Origin: Candidatus Thorarchaeota archaeon
Lineage (GTDB): Archaea; Asgardarchaeota; Thorarchaeia; Thorarchaeales; Thorarchaeaceae
Direction of reading: 5' to 3'
Assembly: GCA_016839445.1 (NCBI GenBank)
Contig: JAEOUG010000141.1
Coordinates: forward strand, 1 to 45,578
DNA: 45,578 nt
Part shown: positions 2,883-21,540 of the stretch, piece by piece
How positions within the stretch are numbered: the stretch's first letter is position 1
Layout of the letters: each line of letters opens with the position of its first letter
Position numbers and translations under genes: made by a program
Notes under the pieces: generated by a model
What the model saw: only the letters and a program-made list of their open reading frames with translations
What the model was told of the DNA's origin: nothing
Database searches by the model: none

Positions 2883-4730
2883 GTGAGCATGAACGGGTGG
2901 AACGGCAGGATACTGTGGGTCGACCTTACTGATAGGACGACTCAGTTTGAAAGCCTTGACGAACAGATATACCTTGACTTCATTGGTGGCAAGGGCCTAG
3001 GAGCCTATCTGCTCTTCCGGGAGCTTGGCGCGCAAGTAGATCCTCTTGGACCGGATAACGTGCTTCTGTTCCTCAATGGACCCCTTCAAGGTCTTCCGGC
3101 ACCGAATGTTGGCAGATGGACCTTGGTGACCAAGTCACCTCATACTGGTCTGTTCCTGGACACTCACTGTGGTGGGCCTCTGGGAAGAGAGATCAAGAAA
3201 TGTGGCTATGACGGCATTGGGATTCGTGGTCGCTCCGAACATCCTGTTGTCCTTGTCATCGATGGGAACGATGTTCAATTCGAGGATGCTCGAATGCTGT
3301 GGGGCAAAGGAACACAGGAATCCACAAGGACTCTCCATGATATGCACAAACAGGGCTCTGCTGTCTTCGTGATAGGCCCTGCAGGTGAGCGACTCATTCC
3401 CATTGCCACTGCGTGTTGTGAATTGGCTCACCAGACTGGTCGTGGAGGAGCTGGAGCTGTACTAGGTTCGAAGAACCTCAAAGGTCTGGTAGTCATTGGC
3501 GACGGCAAGATTCCGGCCGCCGATGTTGAACAGATAAGGCAGATTAACCGAGCGTTGACAAAGGGATGGAACGAGAAGACTGACTATGGCTTCAAAGACT
3601 TCGGCACTCCGTTCTTGGTAGAACTGGCCAACTCCCGAGGGCAATTCCCCACCAGGAATTGGCGAAGCGGATTCTTTGAGAGTCACGAGGGTCTCGACGC
3701 TGCGACGATGAACGAGAAGTGGGGTCTCGGCAGACACCACTCGTGCCCCCACTGTGTCATGCGCTGCACTCATGCCTTTAGGACTGAAGACCCGAGCAAT
3801 CCGGGATCGGAAGTTGAGTCAACAGTTGAGTACGAAACGATGGGTCTCATGGGAGGAAATCTTGGAATTGATGATCCACAGGGGGTCCTCAAACTCAACT
3901 ACCTTTGCGACGACCTAGGAATGGATACGATAAGCACAGGTACGATAATTGGCTTCGCGATGGAAGCGTTCGAGCGCGGGATATTGGCGGAGGATGACGT
4001 AGGGTTCCCACTGAATTTCGGAGACGTGGATGGCGCAATCAGACTCACGAAAATGATTGCCAATAGAGAAGGTATAGGAGAAATCCTGGCAAACGGAGTG
4101 AAGAAGGCTTCAGAACAGATTGGCAATGGAAGTGAGTCCTTTGCCGTGCATGTTAAGGGGCTGGAAGTACCGGCTTGGGACCCAAGAGGTAGGCGAGGTC
4201 TTGGAATCTCATATGCAACAGCCGAAGTTGGCGCTAGCCACCTTCGCGGATGGCCTCAGGCCGTGGATATGCCCGAGGCGCCCGCCTCAGAGGTCATGGA
4301 GTCCCTTATCGACAATCGTGACACGAAGATACTTACAGATTCTCTGATCGTGTGCCACTTCACCTATCATCTTCCTCTTGAGCACGCGACGAAGATTGAT
4401 CTTCTAAGGGCTGCAACAGGTGTTGACTACAGCAAAGAGAGCATCTCGCTGTTCGCCAACAGGGTTGAAACTCTCACGAGGATGTTCAATATCAGAGAGG
4501 GCATAGGAAGGTCTGAAGATCGGATTCCCCCAAGGTTCTGGGAGAAGCATCCGAATGGACCCGCCAAGGGGCTGGCTGCTTTTCTTGATGAGGATGACTT
4601 CAATGAAGCGCTAGATCGATTCTACGAACTGAGAGGGTGGGACAAGGAAGGTACTCCGACTCCTGCAACAATTCAGCGTCTTGGCCTTGATCTACTACTG
4701 CCGGGGCCTACTGGAAGACAGAGCCTTTGA
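2883..4730 (+). CDS. aor: Tungsten-dependent aldehyde:ferredoxin oxidoreductase (AOR family)
   Basis: GWNGRILWVDLT start, KSPHTG, GRGGAGAVLGSKNLK, CxxCxxxC [4Fe-4S] motif, EYET, CDDLGMDTIS, FYELRGWD. Confidence 0.95.
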   Translation: MSMNGWNGRILWVDLTDRTTQFESLDEQIYLDFIGGKGLGAYLLFRELGAQVDPLGPDNVLLFLNGPLQGLPAPNVGRWTLVTKSPHTGLFLDTHCGGPLGREIKKCGYDGIGIRGRSEHPVVLVIDGNDVQFEDARMLWGKGTQESTRTLHDMHKQGSAVFVIGPAGERLIPIATACCELAHQTGRGGAGAVLGSKNLKGLVVIGDGKIPAADVEQIRQINRALTKGWNEKTDYGFKDFGTPFLVELANSRGQFPTRNWRSGFFESHEGLDAATMNEKWGLGRHHSCPHCVMRCTHAFRTEDPSNPGSEVESTVEYETMGLMGGNLGIDDPQGVLKLNYLCDDLGMDTISTGTIIGFAMEAFERGILAEDDVGFPLNFGDVDGAIRLTKMIANREGIGEILANGVKKASEQIGNGSESFAVHVKGLEVPAWDPRGRRGLGISYATAEVGASHLRGWPQAVDMPEAPASEVMESLIDNRDTKILTDSLIVCHFTYHLPLEHATKIDLLRAATGVDYSKESISLFANRVETLTRMFNIREGIGRSEDRIPPRFWEKHPNGPAKGLAAFLDEDDFNEALDRFYELRGWDKEGTPTPATIQRLGLDLLLPGPTGRQSL

Positions 4731-5157
4731 AGTGTCTGCGAAGGTAGACCTCTTTGCAGTTTTCCTCGAAGCCTGACTGCTGGAAGAGTGCGATGACGTC
4801 TCCCCGCGATTCGGGAACGAGTACATCGAGTGCTCTGAGTCCTTTCTTCTCCGCTATCTCTGTAGCCCTTGAGAGGACCTTTGAGCCGAGATCTGTACTC
4901 TCGAGTTCATCTTCTATCTCGAAGTACTTCACGAAACCAATGCGACCGACTTTCGGGTCTTCGCCAATGTCGAGCTTCAGCGCTGCAAGGACCATGTCCT
5001 GAGATGCAGCGATAATGAACATTGTTTCTAGCGGGGCTCCGAATGGCGTAGATGAAGCTCTCGATGACAGGTCCTGGAAGTTCTTTCCTTCTCTGGCATA
5101 GAATCTCTCCAGGGCAGTCCTGTCTTGTGCAGTAGCGAGTCTAACATCGACATCCAT
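4708..5157 (-). CDS. GNAT-family N-acetyltransferase-like protein
   Basis: VRLAT..D start, GNAT-like topology, 'ALFQQSGF' motif B. Motif A is degenerate (ESTDLGS). Start set at ATG 5157. Confidence 0.65.
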   Translation of the reverse strand: MDVDVRLATAQDRTALERFYAREGKNFQDLSSRASSTPFGAPLETMFIIAASQDMVLAALKLDIGEDPKVGRIGFVKYFEIEDELESTDLGSKVLSRATEIAEKKGLRALDVLVPESRGDVIALFQQSGFEENCKEVYLRRHFKGSVFQ

Positions 5158-5248
5158 CAGATGAACCCACAAACATCCTGCCTGTTCAGATTAGAAGTCT
5201 TGTGGTGAGTCCTAATGGTTTAACAAGATACGTGGCGTATGTTCCACA

Positions 5249-5369: not shown

Positions 5370-6122
5370 CTACAGCGTGAGCCTGTAGATCTCTTCAATC
5401 TTCTTGGTGAACTCATTCTCCGGGTAGCGAAGGCTAACAACGAATCTGCTCCCTGCTTCTATTAGAAGAGGAAGGAGTGGTATGATTGTGGCAACTCTTG
5501 ACTTGAATTTGGACTCCACCTCAGAGATTATCGCCTTATCTTCGTAGATGCTCGGCTTCTTGTTGATGACAATCTTGATGTCTGGCACCTGCAGTTTCCT
5601 GGCCACGCTCAGAGTAGCTGCTGTACCCAGCAGGTCCTGCTCGTCGATTCTTGCCACGACAAAGAGGTAGTGGGCAGTGGCCATTGATAGGAGGGTTTCT
5701 CGGTCGAGACCTGGGTGAGTGTCGATTATCAGCATGTCGAGGTCCTTTTCCTTGATTACGTCAGTGAAGCCTCGCTTGAGGTCACCCACCTCGTAGCCCT
5801 CTCTGAGAATCCTAGTGATCTCGGTTGCTGTCATGGAGCTGGGAATGAGGAAGAGCTTTCCCTTCTTGATGCCAAGCCTCTCAGTTAGGTCCATGCACGT
5901 GTCCCCAATGTCGCACGCGCCACGTAGATAATCGTTGAGCGTGTGCTTCATCTTCTCTCTTCCCATGCCAAAGATTACATGAATCCCGGGCGATGCCATG
6001 TCGGTGTCCATCACGGCTACGCGTTTTCCGTCTAGGGCCGCTATCGCCGCTAGGTTTGCGGCGATGTTCGACTTGCCTGTTCCGCCACGGAAACTATGAA
6101 TTGATACGATCTTGCCTGGCAT
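5370..6122 (-). CDS. MinD/ParA-family ATPase
   Basis: Deviant Walker A HSFRGGTGKS, VMDTD (A'), IIDTHPG (Walker B), INK motif; no obvious C-terminal membrane-targeting helix. Confidence 0.92.
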   Translation of the reverse strand: MPGKIVSIHSFRGGTGKSNIAANLAAIAALDGKRVAVMDTDMASPGIHVIFGMGREKMKHTLNDYLRGACDIGDTCMDLTERLGIKKGKLFLIPSSMTATEITRILREGYEVGDLKRGFTDVIKEKDLDMLIIDTHPGLDRETLLSMATAHYLFVVARIDEQDLLGTAATLSVARKLQVPDIKIVINKKPSIYEDKAIISEVESKFKSRVATIIPLLPLLIEAGSRFVVSLRYPENEFTKKIEEIYRLTL

Positions 6123-7463: not shown

Positions 7464-8360
7464 CTACTCCACCAAGCCTGCAACCTCTGTCAGTCGCCAT
7501 TGAACTTGGTCTCCGAGTTTCTCAAGCACATCGTATAGCTGCTCTGGTACCACACCCAGTTTCTCGCTTATCTCAACCAGTGATCTAGAGCCGTTGCAGA
7601 GACCTCGCGCCCTCTCAAGCAGCTGGAACTCCTTGCTTGGCAGTCCTACAAGGTCGAGGTAGGCATTGAAGCGGGCATCATTGCCTTCAATCACGGGGCA
7701 CATCTTCGCCACCTTCAGGAATCCCCTTATCGCTAGGTACTCCACAACTGCAGCAATCTCGTCGTCAGGGATTCCGGTGGCCAAGCTTATCCTATGGATT
7801 GAGTTGCTGCCGTCGATTGCCTCCAGCACCCGATTTCCAGACGTGCCGAAGTCTCTGTGAAACTCATCGAGGAATCCTCCAGAGCGGATGGCGATGTCCA
7901 TCGCCCTCTTCTCCAGAGTAGGCACGACGAACCGGCTCAGGTTTGACATTGTCAGTAGGATTTCTTCATAGTCTGCGAAGACCTGAGTCACCTCTTTCTC
8001 AAAGTCCATGAAGACGTCCAGCACCGCAATCTCCATCTTGAGTTCGTCCTGGTAGCGGGAAACGAACTTGCGCGTGAGTTCTCTTAGAACAGCACGAAGC
8101 ACCTTCTCTGATGCCCCGGATTCTACCAGAAAAATGAACAGGAAATCTGAGCCATATTGCTCGTACAGGAGTTCAGATCCCTCAAACGAAAGGCTCTGAA
8201 TTGACTTTTCCCCAAACTCGGACGCGAAGCTCGTAATCGCACTGAGGAATCCTGAAAGCAGCTCGTCAAGCTTCCGTTCATCAGTTCTGGAGTAGTGGAA
8301 GACAGGACTTCCTCCAGTTGTAAGCACCATGAACTCAAGAATCCCGAGTTTGTCAACCAA
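7464..8360 (-). CDS. Longin + tandem winged-helix protein (NPRL2-like), paralogue of the downstream gene
   Basis: FMVLTTGGSPVFHYS...LDELLSGFLSAITSFASEF longin; VLEAIDGSNSIHRISLATGI and LCNGSRSLVEISEKLGV wHTH repeats; aligns by eye with 6094..7404. Confidence 0.78.
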   Translation of the reverse strand: MVDKLGILEFMVLTTGGSPVFHYSRTDERKLDELLSGFLSAITSFASEFGEKSIQSLSFEGSELLYEQYGSDFLFIFLVESGASEKVLRAVLRELTRKFVSRYQDELKMEIAVLDVFMDFEKEVTQVFADYEEILLTMSNLSRFVVPTLEKRAMDIAIRSGGFLDEFHRDFGTSGNRVLEAIDGSNSIHRISLATGIPDDEIAAVVEYLAIRGFLKVAKMCPVIEGNDARFNAYLDLVGLPSKEFQLLERARGLCNGSRSLVEISEKLGVVPEQLYDVLEKLGDQVQWRLTEVAGLVE

Positions 8361-8491
8361 GAGTCCTCTTCTCCTGCTGACCTTCCCCGGGCTGAAGTTT
8401 CTTTAAGATATCGCCTCTGGATTCCTCCGCTCGAAACATCCATATCTTCCTCTGCAAAGCATCCTGCATCGTCTGGGAGGAATCAGTCTCC

Positions 8492-10111
8492 ATGTTACAG
8501 TACCGAGAGTTCCCGTTGAGGACTGCTGCCGTTCTCGTGCTCTTCTCTGCACCGGTTTCGCTCTGCATCTACATAATCACTGGGCTCGTGTCCGGAACAC
8601 TTCTTGGCCTCAGCCTTCCGGAGCACCATGGACTCTTGGGAATCGGTGCATTGGCTGCGACCGTAGTGCTGCCTATCACAGGACTCATTGTTGATCGAAT
8701 GCGGTTCCACGACCACCTCTTGCTGCTGTCGTCTCTCTTGCCAGCGACGGGTGTTCTCCTGAGGCTCTTCCCTGTCTTGCCTGCTAGCGAAGACCAATTG
8801 AACCTGATACTTGCAGTCTTCGTCTTCTCTGGGCTTGCCGCTTCTGCAGTGCTCTGGACTATCCGGGCCAATCAGAGTGTAGTTGCTCGCTACAGAGGGA
8901 GGACCGTTGCCCTGTTTGTGGCGCTCGTTTTGGTTCTGCTTGGAGTATTCACCTCACTTCCCCAACTTGGTGTCGTTCTCAATGGGGACATCCTTGTGAT
9001 TCCCGCCTTCATATCTCTCTTCGCAGTCCTGCTTGCTGCTGCATTCCGTCCGTGGAAGTTCAGCAGAGCTTCTTTCGGAGCGGCGGGCAGTGCCGGTCTC
9101 TACTTCGTTCCGATGGTGTTCGTCCTTGCGGCGCACATGCTCTGGTACTTCGTAACGAAGACCTCAATAGGGGACTTCTTTGCCGGAGACTCCGCATTCG
9201 AGTCATTGACTCAGTTCACCGGGCTTGAATTCGGGCAGTTGATGCCATTGGCAATCGGTGCCATTGTGAGCGCCGTGTCTGCAGACATCCGGGGCCGGAA
9301 AGCTTCTTTCAGCACACTGCTCTTCATGATGGGCCTCTTGACCATCTTCGGGTCGGCTGTGTATCAGACATACTTCGAGCTAACGGATGTTACTCATACG
9401 ACTTGGACTGTCCTTCTTGTAAGCCTCGTTCTGAGTGAGCGTTTCATCGAGGGCTACATGCTTGGCCTGTGTCTCTTCCTTATCTGGCCTGAGATTGGTT
9501 CTGCGCGAAGCAAAGGTCTTCGACTCTCGCTGATCTGGTTCTTCTTCTTGGGATACATGACGCTGTTCTGGGCGGTGGACCTAAACGCCACGGTCTTTGG
9601 GCTGGACTTCCACTTCCCGTCGGTGCTGAGAAGTTTCGGTGGTGAATTCGCCATTCTCTTCTCTCTGATTGGCCTGTATCTGATAGGTCCGTTGCCAGAA
9701 GTCCTAGGCCGCGAGATTGAGATGGAAGATCTCTCTCTTGAATTCGATGAGCGACAGGTCCGAAAGACAGTTGATGCGTTCGTGGGCGCAGATGACTTCG
9801 AGTCCATCAGGAGCCAGCTTGATATCATCGATGCTGGGCAAGAGATCAGCGATAGCGACATGAGTGAGATTCTTGGAGAGGACTCGAAGGACAAGCTGCA
9901 GCTGCGGAGGATCCCCGGGATTGGCGAGGCTCTCGAGAAGAAGATCCGAGCGGCTGGTTATGAATCGGCTGCGCAGCTTGCTGGTGAAACCGCGCAGCGG
10001 CTCGCTCAGAAGGTGGATGGACTTAGCACGGCAAAGGCTGAGGCGATACTGAAGGAGGCCCGGAAAATCGTCAAGAAGACCATCAAGAAGAACAAGCGCG
10101 GAGCGTCCTAG
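8492..10111 (+). CDS. MFS-like polytopic membrane protein with C-terminal helix-hairpin-helix (RadA-N-like) domain
   Basis: About 12 hydrophobic segments with MFS motif A-like GLIVDRMR and SADIRGRK; acidic linker; LRRIPGIGEALEKKIRAAGY...VDGLSTAKAEAILKEARK (HhH)2; Lys-rich tail. Confidence 0.75.
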   Translation: MLQYREFPLRTAAVLVLFSAPVSLCIYIITGLVSGTLLGLSLPEHHGLLGIGALAATVVLPITGLIVDRMRFHDHLLLLSSLLPATGVLLRLFPVLPASEDQLNLILAVFVFSGLAASAVLWTIRANQSVVARYRGRTVALFVALVLVLLGVFTSLPQLGVVLNGDILVIPAFISLFAVLLAAAFRPWKFSRASFGAAGSAGLYFVPMVFVLAAHMLWYFVTKTSIGDFFAGDSAFESLTQFTGLEFGQLMPLAIGAIVSAVSADIRGRKASFSTLLFMMGLLTIFGSAVYQTYFELTDVTHTTWTVLLVSLVLSERFIEGYMLGLCLFLIWPEIGSARSKGLRLSLIWFFFLGYMTLFWAVDLNATVFGLDFHFPSVLRSFGGEFAILFSLIGLYLIGPLPEVLGREIEMEDLSLEFDERQVRKTVDAFVGADDFESIRSQLDIIDAGQEISDSDMSEILGEDSKDKLQLRRIPGIGEALEKKIRAAGYESAAQLAGETAQRLAQKVDGLSTAKAEAILKEARKIVKKTIKKNKRGAS

Positions 10112-11028: not shown

Positions 11029-11943
11029 TCAACGTCTGAAGTGGAATGAGAGACCCGTCCCCGCTAATAGGTCCGCTCCGTCAAGCTGTTTTCCACAGGT
11101 CGCGCATCTGAATACGATCTTAGGATCATTAGAGGCAGTACCACATTTGTTGCACAGGGGCTCAACATCAATGACCGAGAGCTCGCTGACCTTCACTGGT
11201 GTCTTGCAGTGAATACATGTCACCTCAGAAAGATCATCCACAATGACTGCGTGGAACTGAGTGCTGCACCTAGGACAGAAGACGTTGAAGACTTTGTGCA
11301 GGTCCTCCGACTGGCATCTTGGACATAGCAGTTCTATTGTGACATTCGAGTCTCCGCATTGGCGGCACTCAAGACTTCGGCCGTAGGTCTTTGATATCAG
11401 CACACCGGCATCTTCAAGATCGTGGAGAAGTCTGGCTACCTCCTCGTCATCAGTCCCTAGGAAATCCCTTGCAGCGGGGTATCTGTGCGAGGTCCTCAGA
11501 ACATGCTCTGGTCTTACGGAATCTATCCGACCCGTAACGAGTTCCTCGACTAGCTTCTTAACTCCTGGATTTGCTAGGAGCTCATCGCCACTGGTTTCCT
11601 TCATTAATTCATGAAGAAGTCTGAATGACTTCGCAAGTTCGTCGTCCCAGGAATCTGCATCGAAATCAATGTGAGGAACAAGCCTGCGGAGGTTTCTCTC
11701 GACAACGCTCGCCTCCTCCTGTTCTTCGACAAGTACTGCAACGCAAGCAGGGGATCTCATGTAGGAAATGACAAGGCCCTGCTGAAGCTTCGAGTAGCCT
11801 ATCTCTGATTCCTGATTCACTCCGTGGCCCATGAAGACCGTAACTGCTTCTTCAGAAGTGAGGGGAGTTGCCTCTGGATATGACCGACCAACCATTGGTC
11901 CAAGGTTGTCGTCCCACCAAATCGAGAATATCGCCTTCGGCAC
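11029..11943 (-). CDS. Longin/uDENN-like domain fused to TackOD1-like (wHTH + multi-Zn-ribbon) domain
   Basis: N-terminal IFSIWWDDNLGPMVGRSYP (DxxxGP...YP). Then LHDLEDAGVL followed by six CxxC motifs spaced as in Thaumarchaeal output domain 1. Confidence 0.65.
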   Translation of the reverse strand: MPKAIFSIWWDDNLGPMVGRSYPEATPLTSEEAVTVFMGHGVNQESEIGYSKLQQGLVISYMRSPACVAVLVEEQEEASVVERNLRRLVPHIDFDADSWDDELAKSFRLLHELMKETSGDELLANPGVKKLVEELVTGRIDSVRPEHVLRTSHRYPAARDFLGTDDEEVARLLHDLEDAGVLISKTYGRSLECRQCGDSNVTIELLCPRCQSEDLHKVFNVFCPRCSTQFHAVIVDDLSEVTCIHCKTPVKVSELSVIDVEPLCNKCGTASNDPKIVFRCATCGKQLDGADLLAGTGLSFHFRR

Positions 11944-20217: not shown

Positions 20218-21540
20218 TTACTCGGCAGTACCGAGAGTGCCCTCCTCTGCCTTGGCCACGGGCCTCATCGCGCGCAGCGCGAGAGCGAGCACTGCAATCA
20301 TCACGAAGCTGAAGATGCCCGAAAAGAGGAAGACCAGCCGGAGGCTTGACCACGCCTCCCAGAGGAATGCTCCTAGGTTGTATGCCACAAGGCTTCCTAC
20401 CGCTATGAAGAAGTTGTACGTCCCAAGTGCTCTGCCCTTCCGTTCCCTCCCGGCCCCTCGAACGACGAGAGTCTTTTCTGCCCCAATCCAGAGCGCAATC
20501 GGCAAAGCCCATGTTATGTTGAGTGCCCAGAGGGCGAACAGACCTGTAGCGGCTGAGAACACGAGAATCAGCATGCTGTTTCCCACCAAGGTTGCCACCA
20601 TGGCTCCCTTCAGATTCCTGTCGGCAAAATCACCTGCTTTGCTCAGAAGAGCGGCGCTGGTGAGTGAGAAGCCGCTCCATGCGTAACCGTACATTTGAGG
20701 GCTGATGCCGCCCCATTCACCCACAACCAGGTTTCCTAGATATGCTACTGAGGCGCGATAGATGATGACGTATCCGGCCATTGCCAGGGTGAATTTCCAG
20801 AAGTCCCCACCCAGACCTCTAATGGTGACCACTGGGCCAGCCCTTGCCTTGTCTATCACCTTCTTTTCAAGTGATTCACCAATGAACGCCAGAGTCGCCA
20901 TCAGGGCAACGATCGAGCCAATACCTGCAACAAGATGGAGGTCACTAGCACCATACCCAAGGTCCATCAGTAGTGACGCCGCTATAGGGCTCGTTCCATC
21001 CACAATGAAAGCAGGGAGCAGCACAACGTTGAATATCCTGGCTGAGTTTCTGCCGGTTGTGACAGCAATCTCGTCTGCTGCTATCGCACTGGATACGATG
21101 ATGACGAAGGCCCAACCGAACATGATGAGCGCATACTCGACCAATATGATTGGCCACCATGGTGCGAACCTGAGTCCTACAAGGCCCACTGACATAGGAA
21201 TGAAGGATAGGGCCATTGTGTTCCTCCGGCCGATGAGATCGGCGATGGTCCCCGAGAGAATATAGCCGATTATTGTTGCCGCGGTTCCGACACTGAAGAC
21301 CAGCCCAATCTCCCATTTCTGAAGGACCACACCGAACGTAGAGGCTAGGTCGAATTCCAGGAAGATACTGAACTCCCATGCCCAGAAACTCATTGAGAAT
21401 TGCGCGAGACCCACGACCAACGCCATTCGCCAGAGGCTACCAGTGAGACCGTAGAATCCCCTGGAGTTACTCCCCTGTTCAATGGGAGTATCACTGGCTA
21501 CCTGATTCTCGTCGTGCGTCAAGCAGGAATCACATCGCAT
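20218..21540 (-). CDS. MFS transporter
   Basis: About 12 TM; motif A GTIADLIGRR; ERKGRALG motif. Confidence 0.9.
   Translation of the reverse strand: MRCDSCLTHDENQVASDTPIEQGSNSRGFYGLTGSLWRMALVVGLAQFSMSFWAWEFSIFLEFDLASTFGVVLQKWEIGLVFSVGTAATIIGYILSGTIADLIGRRNTMALSFIPMSVGLVGLRFAPWWPIILVEYALIMFGWAFVIIVSSAIAADEIAVTTGRNSARIFNVVLLPAFIVDGTSPIAASLLMDLGYGASDLHLVAGIGSIVALMATLAFIGESLEKKVIDKARAGPVVTIRGLGGDFWKFTLAMAGYVIIYRASVAYLGNLVVGEWGGISPQMYGYAWSGFSLTSAALLSKAGDFADRNLKGAMVATLVGNSMLILVFSAATGLFALWALNITWALPIALWIGAEKTLVVRGAGRERKGRALGTYNFFIAVGSLVAYNLGAFLWEAWSSLRLVFLFSGIFSFVMIAVLALALRAMRPVAKAEEGTLGTAE

Follow-up and report, generated by a model that had tools for sequence, protein, structure and literature searches.

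Here, we analyse a gene of Candidatus Thorarchaeota that lies at positions 8492 to 10111 (forward strand) of contig JAEOUG010000141.1 (assembly GCA_016839445.1; the window is the whole stretch of 45,578 nucleotides (nt) that was analysed). Its product, MFS-HhH (P0001), joins a membrane body with the fold of the major facilitator superfamily (MFS) to a tail that carries a helix-hairpin-helix (HhH) domain. By co-inheritance, MFS-HhH is probably the membrane partner of the longin proteins and the ParA-type ATPase that are encoded beside it. We propose, at a probability of roughly 45%, that it provides the membrane platform for a ParA-type switch module of three parts, which contacts nucleic acid and has the tail of MFS-HhH as its working end.

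The module would comprise MFS-HhH, one or two longin/winged-helix proteins and a variant ParA-type ATPase. The tandem HhH domain, (HhH)2, and the basic end of the tail would contact nucleic acid in a sequence-independent manner at the inner membrane face. The acidic linker that precedes them would dock a longin/winged-helix protein and/or the ATP-bound ATPase dimer, or might auto-inhibit or mask the HhH domain, and the module as a whole would build a DNA-protein complex at the membrane under the control of an ATP switch. The membrane body probably still cycles between conformations, because MFS gating motifs are retained, and may pass a transport or membrane-state signal to the tail.

Phyletic distribution and gene order

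The phyletic patterns of MFS-HhH, the longin/winged-helix protein and the ATPase agree among 400 surveyed genomes of the phylum, which bears out the co-occurrence that an earlier note on this stretch had put forward as a check. Matches at the level of the MFS-HhH body were obtained in 74 of the 85 genomes of its own family (Thorarchaeota, f1; E ≤ 1e-30), in the single genome of a sister family (f2; E 1.9e-37) and in 17 of the 19 genomes of a distant lineage (f14; E 1.8e-13 to 7.7e-22), whose proteins of this type are labelled Hodarchaeota, Hermodarchaeota or merely Promethearchaeota by the sources. All other families reach E values of about 1e-5 to 3e-8 at most, which is the level of HhH-only matches. 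Orthologues of the longin/winged-helix protein (E ≤ 1e-100) were confined to the same three groups (58/85, 1/1 and 17/19 genomes), with a best E value of 7.8e-22 elsewhere. The ATPase (E ≤ 1e-40) was present in 69/85, 1/1 and 18/19 genomes, and a related form occurs in the families f17-f19. All three genes are missing from nine Thorarchaeota genomes, two of which are at least 92% complete (G336, 97%, in 20 contigs, and G370, 92%). Two fragmented Thorarchaeota genomes lack MFS-HhH alone, and three have it at a contig edge with the partners missing.

Gene order points in the same direction. Among 31 Thorarchaeota loci, four start within the MFS-HhH gene; in all 27 loci that have upstream sequence, a short longin gene is encoded divergently upstream of MFS-HhH. 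The ATPase gene follows in 21 of these 27 loci, and the remaining six end short of its position. The entire 17-kb Thorarchaeota region is collinear, which alone says little about linkage. In the distant lineage, MFS-HhH stands head-to-head with one longin/winged-helix gene, followed by the ATPase gene, in 12 of 13 loci at an identity of about 25%; the thirteenth locus holds 176 nt of flank only. Nine other proteins of the window were tested and had no match in the loci of the distant lineage. The retention of this arrangement at about 25% identity and with no other common neighbour is decisive for a real and old linkage. The earlier note had named the absence of this linkage from other genomes as one condition that would refute its proposal, and the linkage was found in them.

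In genus g12 of the Thorarchaeota (loci L082-L084), the longer longin paralogue is missing, while the short one, the ATPase and MFS-HhH are kept. Across the Thorarchaeota loci, the ATPase is 84-89% identical, compared with 44-72% for the partners and 41-72% for neighbouring genes, among them 58-66% for aldehyde:ferredoxin oxidoreductase (AFOR) and 45-54% for the methylene-tetrahydromethanopterin (H4MPT) dehydrogenase Mtd. Between Thorarchaeota and the distant lineage the ATPase is still about 50% identical, and it is far more conserved than any neighbouring gene.

The membrane body and its C-terminal tail

MFS-HhH is read from an ATG start codon into 539 amino acids (aa; the coordinates 8492-10111 include the stop codon). 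It occupies the sole long frame in its stretch of the window and is present as a single copy in its own genome. A total of 184 database proteins match it at E ≤ 0.001, the nearest of which are labelled Thorarchaeota by database sources. Among the 120 matches listed, lengths range from 446 to 590 aa and identities from 51 to 100%, and 118 of the 120 carry PF14520, so the architecture does not represent a chance fusion. An exhaustive phmmer search against 1.84 billion representatives returned 44 matches at E ≤ 0.001. HHH_5 was recovered at the end of all eight full-length distant representatives scanned with Pfam (seven above the cut-off, one at 25.1 bits), and the fusion is retained in all 14 loci of the sister family and the distant lineage. 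No paper on the MFS-HhH protein was found in full-text literature searches, and the accessible parts of the Asgard transporter survey PMC7997004 do not mention the HhH fusion.

The body (aa 1-402, positions 8492 to 9697, forward strand) is MFS-like by predicted structure. An AlphaFold2 model built on 40 relatives (mean predicted local distance difference test score, pLDDT, 77.4; transmembrane (TM) blocks mostly 80-95) places 12 long helices within residues 9-398, which fold as two six-helix halves that superpose on solved MFS carriers. Foldseek returned 138 matches in the PDB at E ≤ 0.001, led by MelB, OxlT, MFSD2A, VMAT and GLUT3, and the best 50 of these 138 are all MFS-type transport proteins as judged by their titles. 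VIA-align gave Z ≥ 8 for 498 of 1000 chains, with MCT8 (9fkn_A) at the top (Z 26.4, root-mean-square deviation 4.5, 364 aligned residues) and Z 24-26.4 over 340-372 aligned residues for MCT8, SLC37A4, VMAT2 and DgoT. The entries 9fkn and 8zko (MCT8), 9w1p (SLC37A4), 8jsx (VMAT2) and 6e9o (DgoT) share the 12 helices in two halves with MFS-HhH at Z 25.5-26.4 and 341-372 aligned residues. They differ from it by an identity of 9-13% to the body and by the (HhH)2-bearing tail of about 140 residues on MFS-HhH. The Foldseek comparison had been suggested by the earlier note, and its description of a body with about 12 TM helices holds.

The term MFS-like needs a qualification at the level of sequence families. 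Pfam MFS_1 (PF07690; cut-off 33.4 bits) has no match on the body at E ≤ 0.01, none of the 44 matches from a six-frame PF07690 search of the genome falls at 8492-10111, and none of the eight full-length representatives scanned gave an MFS match in Pfam. A family profile of MFS-HhH searched against PDB sequences likewise retrieved HhH relatives only and zero MFS chains. A partial profile-profile match exists, however: hhalign against 12 canonical MFS_1 proteins of the same genome aligned 107 columns over TM2-TM5 (Prob 95.8%, E 7.6e-9) and paired the G-x-x-x-D-R loop and the R-G loop of the body with those of the MFS_1 proteins. The nearest clusters to the body in the Atlas are archaeal MFS_1 families (score 0.97). 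Motif A of MFS carriers, G-x-x-x-D-R/K-x-G-R-R/K, is located in the TM2-TM3 loop and is often repeated in the TM8-TM9 loop. In MFS-HhH, motif-A-like loops follow TM2 (G64..D68-R69, partial) and TM8 (D265-x-R-G268-R269-K270, conserved), and proteins of the distant lineage carry a canonical PDRLGRK loop. Judged by its modelled fold and these motifs, the body is thus an MFS body that stands outside the Pfam MFS_1 sequence family. Elsewhere in the window, a canonical MFS_1 match (43.5 bits) lies at 20230-20709 (reverse strand), inside a 552-aa frame.

When 31 sequences of the three lineages were aligned jointly, 15 residues proved invariant (R135, Y204, R269, L312, W332, E334, G336, W349, E408, E412, D419, G476, G489, Y490 and A516). 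Conservation falls mostly on cytoplasmic loops (R135, D265/G268/R269/K270, W332-x-E334-x-G336), on a juxtamembrane acidic segment (E408, E412, D419) and on the core of the HhH domain. The predicted cavity contains no charged residue that is invariant among the 31 aligned sequences, and the acidic position in TM10 is either E or Q.

With helices taken from the model, the loops on the side of both termini hold 13 Lys and Arg residues versus 2 on the opposite side. Together with the even helix count, this predicts that the tail is cytoplasmic, and an external HhH domain is unlikely. The earlier note had also considered a DNA-uptake component, for which the precedent would be ComEA, a protein with a single membrane anchor and an external (HhH)2 domain that binds incoming DNA in bacterial competence. 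MFS-HhH shares the membrane-attached (HhH)2 module with such receptors and differs from them in its 12 TM helices and its predicted cytoplasmic domain. We consider a ComEA-like external receptor or uptake component very improbable, as a 12-helix MFS protein has both ends on the cytoplasmic side, the charge bias supports this orientation, and the tail shares its side with the motif-A loops, which face the cytoplasm in MFS carriers.

The tail starts with an acidic linker (aa 403-465, positions 9698 to 9886, forward strand) of net charge -15, and the linker is acidic in all 31 aligned sequences (net charge -6 to -23). In spite of this conservation it is poorly modelled, with pLDDT values below 50 in the low-confidence segment 401-461, which is followed by a helical C-terminal domain at a pLDDT of about 78. 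Such a pattern is typical of segments that fold on a partner, and we infer that the linker may do so.

The (HhH)2 domain (aa 466-527, positions 9887 to 10072, forward strand) is of the RadA/Rad51 N-terminal type, with PGIG in the first and DGLS in the second hairpin. Pfam HHH_5 covers residues 471-525 with 32.7 bits (cut-off 27). A profile built from 20 loci matched best, within the PDB, to 1pzn (5.5e-11), 2bke (3.8e-10) and the N-terminal domain of human RAD51, 1b22 (6.1e-8). The next matches were the (HhH)2 units of topoisomerase (Topo) V, the N-terminal extension of archaeal eL32, and NusA. The matches to the RadA/Rad51 domains cover both hairpins and the conserved AGY segment. In contrast to these proteins, MFS-HhH carries its HhH domain at the C-terminal end of a membrane protein, in a more basic form (net charge 0 to +12 across the 31 sequences), followed by a polybasic tail and without a RecA-type ATPase core; the protein stops 12 residues past the HhH domain. 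NCBIfam RadA models match MFS-HhH at positions 3-63 of 316 only, with 26 bits against a cut-off of 259. Identity as a RadA/Rad51 recombinase was ruled out by the absence of the RecA-type core.

The basic C-terminal end, KKTIKKNKRGAS (aa 528-539, positions 10073 to 10108, forward strand), has a net charge of +6 and includes KKTIKKNKR at residues 528-536; a net charge of at least +4 is found in 22 of the 31 aligned sequences. The acidic linker, the RadA-like domain and the KKTIKKNKR end had all been described in the earlier note and are confirmed here. Among other database proteins matched in the phmmer search (P0139, P0149, P0142, P0150, P0153, P0156), HHH_5 occurs in two to seven copies, with Topo VI subunit A or the ribosomal proteins eL32 and eS25 as fusion partners.

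MFS bodies that are followed by a small soluble cytoplasmic domain are also seen in Escherichia coli YajR (3wdo; Z 23.9, 359 aligned residues). To our knowledge, the extra domain of YajR is not HhH, and we know of no acidic linker, basic tail or longin/ParA partners for it. MFS-HhH could thus be read as an ordinary lineage-specific MFS carrier whose winged-helix neighbours are divergently encoded transcriptional regulators and whose HhH domain is a stabilising or incidental appendage without a role in DNA binding. Divergent regulator-transporter gene pairs are very common, carriers with an extra cytoplasmic C-terminal domain such as YajR exist, and the genes are unlinked in G311, the sole genome of the sister family. 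Nevertheless, we regard this reading as distinctly unlikely. An incidental appendage sits poorly with the HHH_5 fusion in 8/8 full-length distant representatives and 14/14 loci outside Thorarchaeota, or with linker residues that are invariant over three lineages, and a simple regulator-transporter pair fails to explain an ATPase that is constant in the set and very strongly conserved.

Partner proteins, putative promoters and genomic context

Three partner genes are encoded on the reverse strand. The nearest, at 7464 to 8360, specifies a short longin and winged-helix protein (P0165, 298 aa; Pfam Fuz_longin_1 26.2 bits, weak matches to winged helix-turn-helix (wHTH) domains). It is a tandem paralogue of P0166 (6094 to 7404, 436 aa; E 1e-20 for the N-terminal and 1e-18 for the C-terminal part), which combines a longin domain, a second alpha/beta domain and winged-helix units, matches the TrmB wHTH family in Pfam (37.9 bits), and is the type that the distant lineage also has. 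In an AlphaFold2 model (pLDDT 78.9), P0166 shows an N-terminal domain of the order beta-beta-alpha-beta-beta-beta-alpha, the second alpha/beta domain and C-terminal winged-helix units. The order of its elements suggests that the second alpha/beta domain is roadblock-like. Its best Foldseek matches were Fuzzy, MON1/CCZ1, NPRL chains of GATOR1 and BLOC-3, at E values of 1e-7 to 1e-5 and with low whole-chain TM-scores (0.2-0.27). P0166 thus resembles the NPRL2-like longins, Fuzzy-Inturned, Mon1-Ccz1 and GATOR1 by fold, and differs from these eukaryotic multi-longin regulators in the company it keeps: they work with a small GTPase, whereas the longins described here accompany an ATPase. An NPRL2-like family has been reported from most Thor metagenome-assembled genomes (MAGs), according to the main text of Liu et al. 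(bioRxiv 10.1101/2020.10.19.343400). The terms MinD, MFS and helix-hairpin do not occur in that main text, and its supplements might list the gene as a neighbour.

The third gene (5370 to 6122) encodes a variant ParA/MinD-type ATPase (P0164, 250 aa), whose Pfam and NCBIfam matches lie below the MinD cut-offs and whose best PDB relative is Archaeoglobus fulgidus MinD-1 (1hyq, E 3.7e-16). Its Walker A motif HSFRGGTGKS, in which Arg12 replaces the signature Lys, and a DTHPG motif are both invariant in 22 sequences. The MinD label given by the earlier note needs a correction: the protein is not a canonical MinD but belongs to the ParA type with Arg for Lys, termed ConB2. The ConB2 assemblage is defined by Arg in place of the Walker-A Lys and by a PG motif in the main text of the preprint by Li, Burroughs and Aravind (bioRxiv 10.64898/2026.10.19.760177). 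The same text describes a mainly archaeal 'ParA-wHTH' system in which some wHTH proteins are fused to a profilin/longin-like domain, proposes that it is an immune system that intercepts and coats invader DNA, calls its wHTH proteins 'rapidly evolving', and notes that ParA-centred systems elsewhere have recruited HhH or HeH DNA-binding modules. The main text of bioRxiv 10.64898/2026.10.19.760177 contains none of the words MFS, transporter, Asgard and Thorarchae-, nor does it describe a membrane HhH partner; the gene might be named as a neighbour in its supplements. Of the components of the module, the longin and ATPase halves are already in print, and MFS-HhH is the one for which no paper was found.

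By Arg12 and DTHPG in P0164 and by partners with longin and wHTH domains, the Thorarchaeota module matches the ParA-wHTH (ConB2) systems as characterised in that main text, from which it differs in being conserved and vertically inherited rather than fast-evolving. The module could hence be a membrane-linked form of this system, in which MFS-HhH would capture DNA at the inner membrane face as it enters the cell; a cytoplasmic domain that binds DNA non-specifically and sits at the membrane would be well placed for such interception. Both ConB2 hallmarks of the ATPase, and the longin-like fusions of the mainly archaeal wHTH partners in the preprint's main text, speak for this possibility. However, the module is single-copy, vertical and collinear across the family in a region of even composition, and its proteins are at least as conserved as their metabolic neighbours, unlike the 'rapidly evolving' wHTH proteins of that main text. 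No effector gene is present, PADLOC gave no match for P0001 and P0165 and weak partial matches for P0164 and P0166, and the preprint's main text makes no reference to MFS proteins, transporters or Asgard archaea. An immune function is thus quite improbable.

Related ATPases occur in five of seven genomes of the families f17-f19. At the loci L085 (G125), L086 (G126) and L088 (G129), they score 315-341 bits and are flanked by a TPR protein, a protein of 110-137 aa and a coiled-coil/weak wHTH protein, and no MFS-HhH gene was found near them at these three loci. The f17-f19 loci may represent a variant module with other partners.

MFS-HhH and the short longin gene are separated by a divergent intergenic region of 131 base pairs (bp; 8361 to 8491), in agreement with the region of about 130 bp that the earlier note had assigned to both. 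Conserved motifs were found in 25 aligned Thorarchaeota intergenic regions, TCTTTAAGATATCGC at 8400-8414 and CGAAACATCCATA at 8432-8444. The region of the distant lineage has its own analogous motif, TGAAAC.CTTATAAT, which is not the same sequence. Read against the archaeal promoter consensus, these motifs look like putative back-to-back BRE/TATA-type promoters of two divergent units. A role as operator or centromere site is not claimed, given the resemblance to BRE/TATA elements and the presence of an analogous rather than the same pair in the distant lineage. In a metatranscriptome, one run contained a single 166-nt contig identical to 7531-7696, within the short longin gene; no contig of that run covered the MFS-HhH gene and two sister runs contained nothing, at a depth that indicates neither expression nor silence.

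The same features of body, partners and promoters can be read as those of a transceptor, an alternative that the earlier note had raised, or of a regulated transporter, and this is the main rival to the membrane platform proposed here. Its MFS body would carry or sense a solute and pass its conformational state via the conserved linker to the ATPase and the longin/winged-helix proteins; these would then act on transcription, by way of the wHTH domains, or on another output, while the HhH domain would serve mainly in protein contacts or as an auxiliary element. Motif-A-type loops are kept in both halves of the body, in canonical form (PDRLGRK) in the distant lineage, and the body has a profile-profile match to bona fide MFS_1 proteins over TM2-TM5. 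P0166 folds like NPRL2/3, Mon1-Ccz1 and Fuzzy, which are membrane-recruited regulators of eukaryotic NTPase switches, and eukaryotic transporters that recruit longin complexes exist. The TrmB-type match of the P0166 wHTH domain, the putative back-to-back promoters between the gene and the partner operon, and the sugar-metabolism genes near MFS-HhH in G311, where it adjoins SfsA, glycogen-debranching-enzyme, SIS-domain and arrestin-N-like genes, are all in accordance with regulated transport. Yet the predicted cavity is without an invariant charged residue and its TM10 acidic position varies between E and Q, the neighbours in one genome are the sole clue to a substrate, and the retention of a nucleic-acid-type domain and a polybasic tail is left unexplained. 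We therefore consider this rival possible, if rather doubtful. Unlikely, in our view, is a form that unites both readings, in which the tail of a transceptor recruits an NPRL2/3- or Mon1-Ccz1-like longin pair and the ParA-type switch to the membrane and also touches DNA directly. If true, such a transceptor would couple the membrane or nutrient state to the nucleoid, and would be a prokaryotic counterpart of eukaryotic transporter-longin-NTPase sensing platforms in which an ATPase replaces the small GTPase.

The wider window is archaeal by its gene content, with an F420-dependent methylene-H4MPT dehydrogenase, an aldehyde:ferredoxin oxidoreductase, an FrhB-like protein and a TackOD1 protein among the neighbours, and even in composition (GC 0.51-0.55 throughout). 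TackOD1, Mtd, AFOR, the GNAT-like protein and other Thorarchaeota neighbours were rejected as members of the module, as the loci of the distant lineage have none of them next to MFS-HhH. The TackOD1/zinc-ribbon protein (11029-11943, reverse strand) is encoded downstream throughout Thorarchaeota, past Mtd where that is present, and is absent from the loci of the distant lineage, which places it outside the conserved core. A 154-aa protein with a weak GNAT-like match (4708-5172, reverse strand) adjoins the ATPase in 22 of the 31 Thorarchaeota loci and is not found in those of the distant lineage.

Weight of the evidence and biological meaning

Support for MFS-HhH as the membrane platform of a nucleic-acid-contacting switch module includes the fusion of HHH_5 elsewhere to nucleic-acid-handling proteins (Topo VI-A, eL32, eS25) and, by analogy, the recruitment of HhH or HeH modules by other ParA-centred systems. 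Complex prediction for the P0166-type protein (436 aa), the ATPase (250 aa) and the tail (residues 396-539), with alignments as input, gave scores of 0.29 and 0.10 relative to a mark of 0.32, in a set without control runs, and these scores speak neither for nor against the module.

Several observations weigh against this proposal. Adjacent genes vanish together in fragmented MAGs, and their co-absence is therefore weak evidence. As the genes are adjacent and the genomes related, the locus counts amount to about three independent lineages and not to 40. G311 has MFS-HhH (L067, C39) and the longin-ATPase pair (L081, C41) on separate contigs. Nine of the 31 aligned sequences have no basic tail or a neutral one. 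The hairpins of the distant lineage are degenerate (the first reads G-V/L-T and the second is often without Gly) and G476 is their sole invariant residue, so the HhH domain could make protein contacts instead. Finally, neither 12 helices nor intact motif-A loops would be required of a pure tether, and their presence points towards transport or sensing.

Asgard longin-type proteins are regarded as forerunners of eukaryotic regulators of membrane trafficking and nutrient sensing. Through the linkage described here, one longin family and an unusual ParA-type ATPase gain a concrete and conserved membrane partner, the soluble tail of which, with about 140 residues, is purifiable. If this tail binds nothing, MFS-HhH would be a divergent transporter with an odd appendage. 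If it binds DNA and the partner proteins, the closest archaeal relatives of eukaryotes would possess a direct link from membrane to DNA under the control of an ATP switch, and the result would bear on an immune versus a housekeeping role of the published ParA-wHTH systems.

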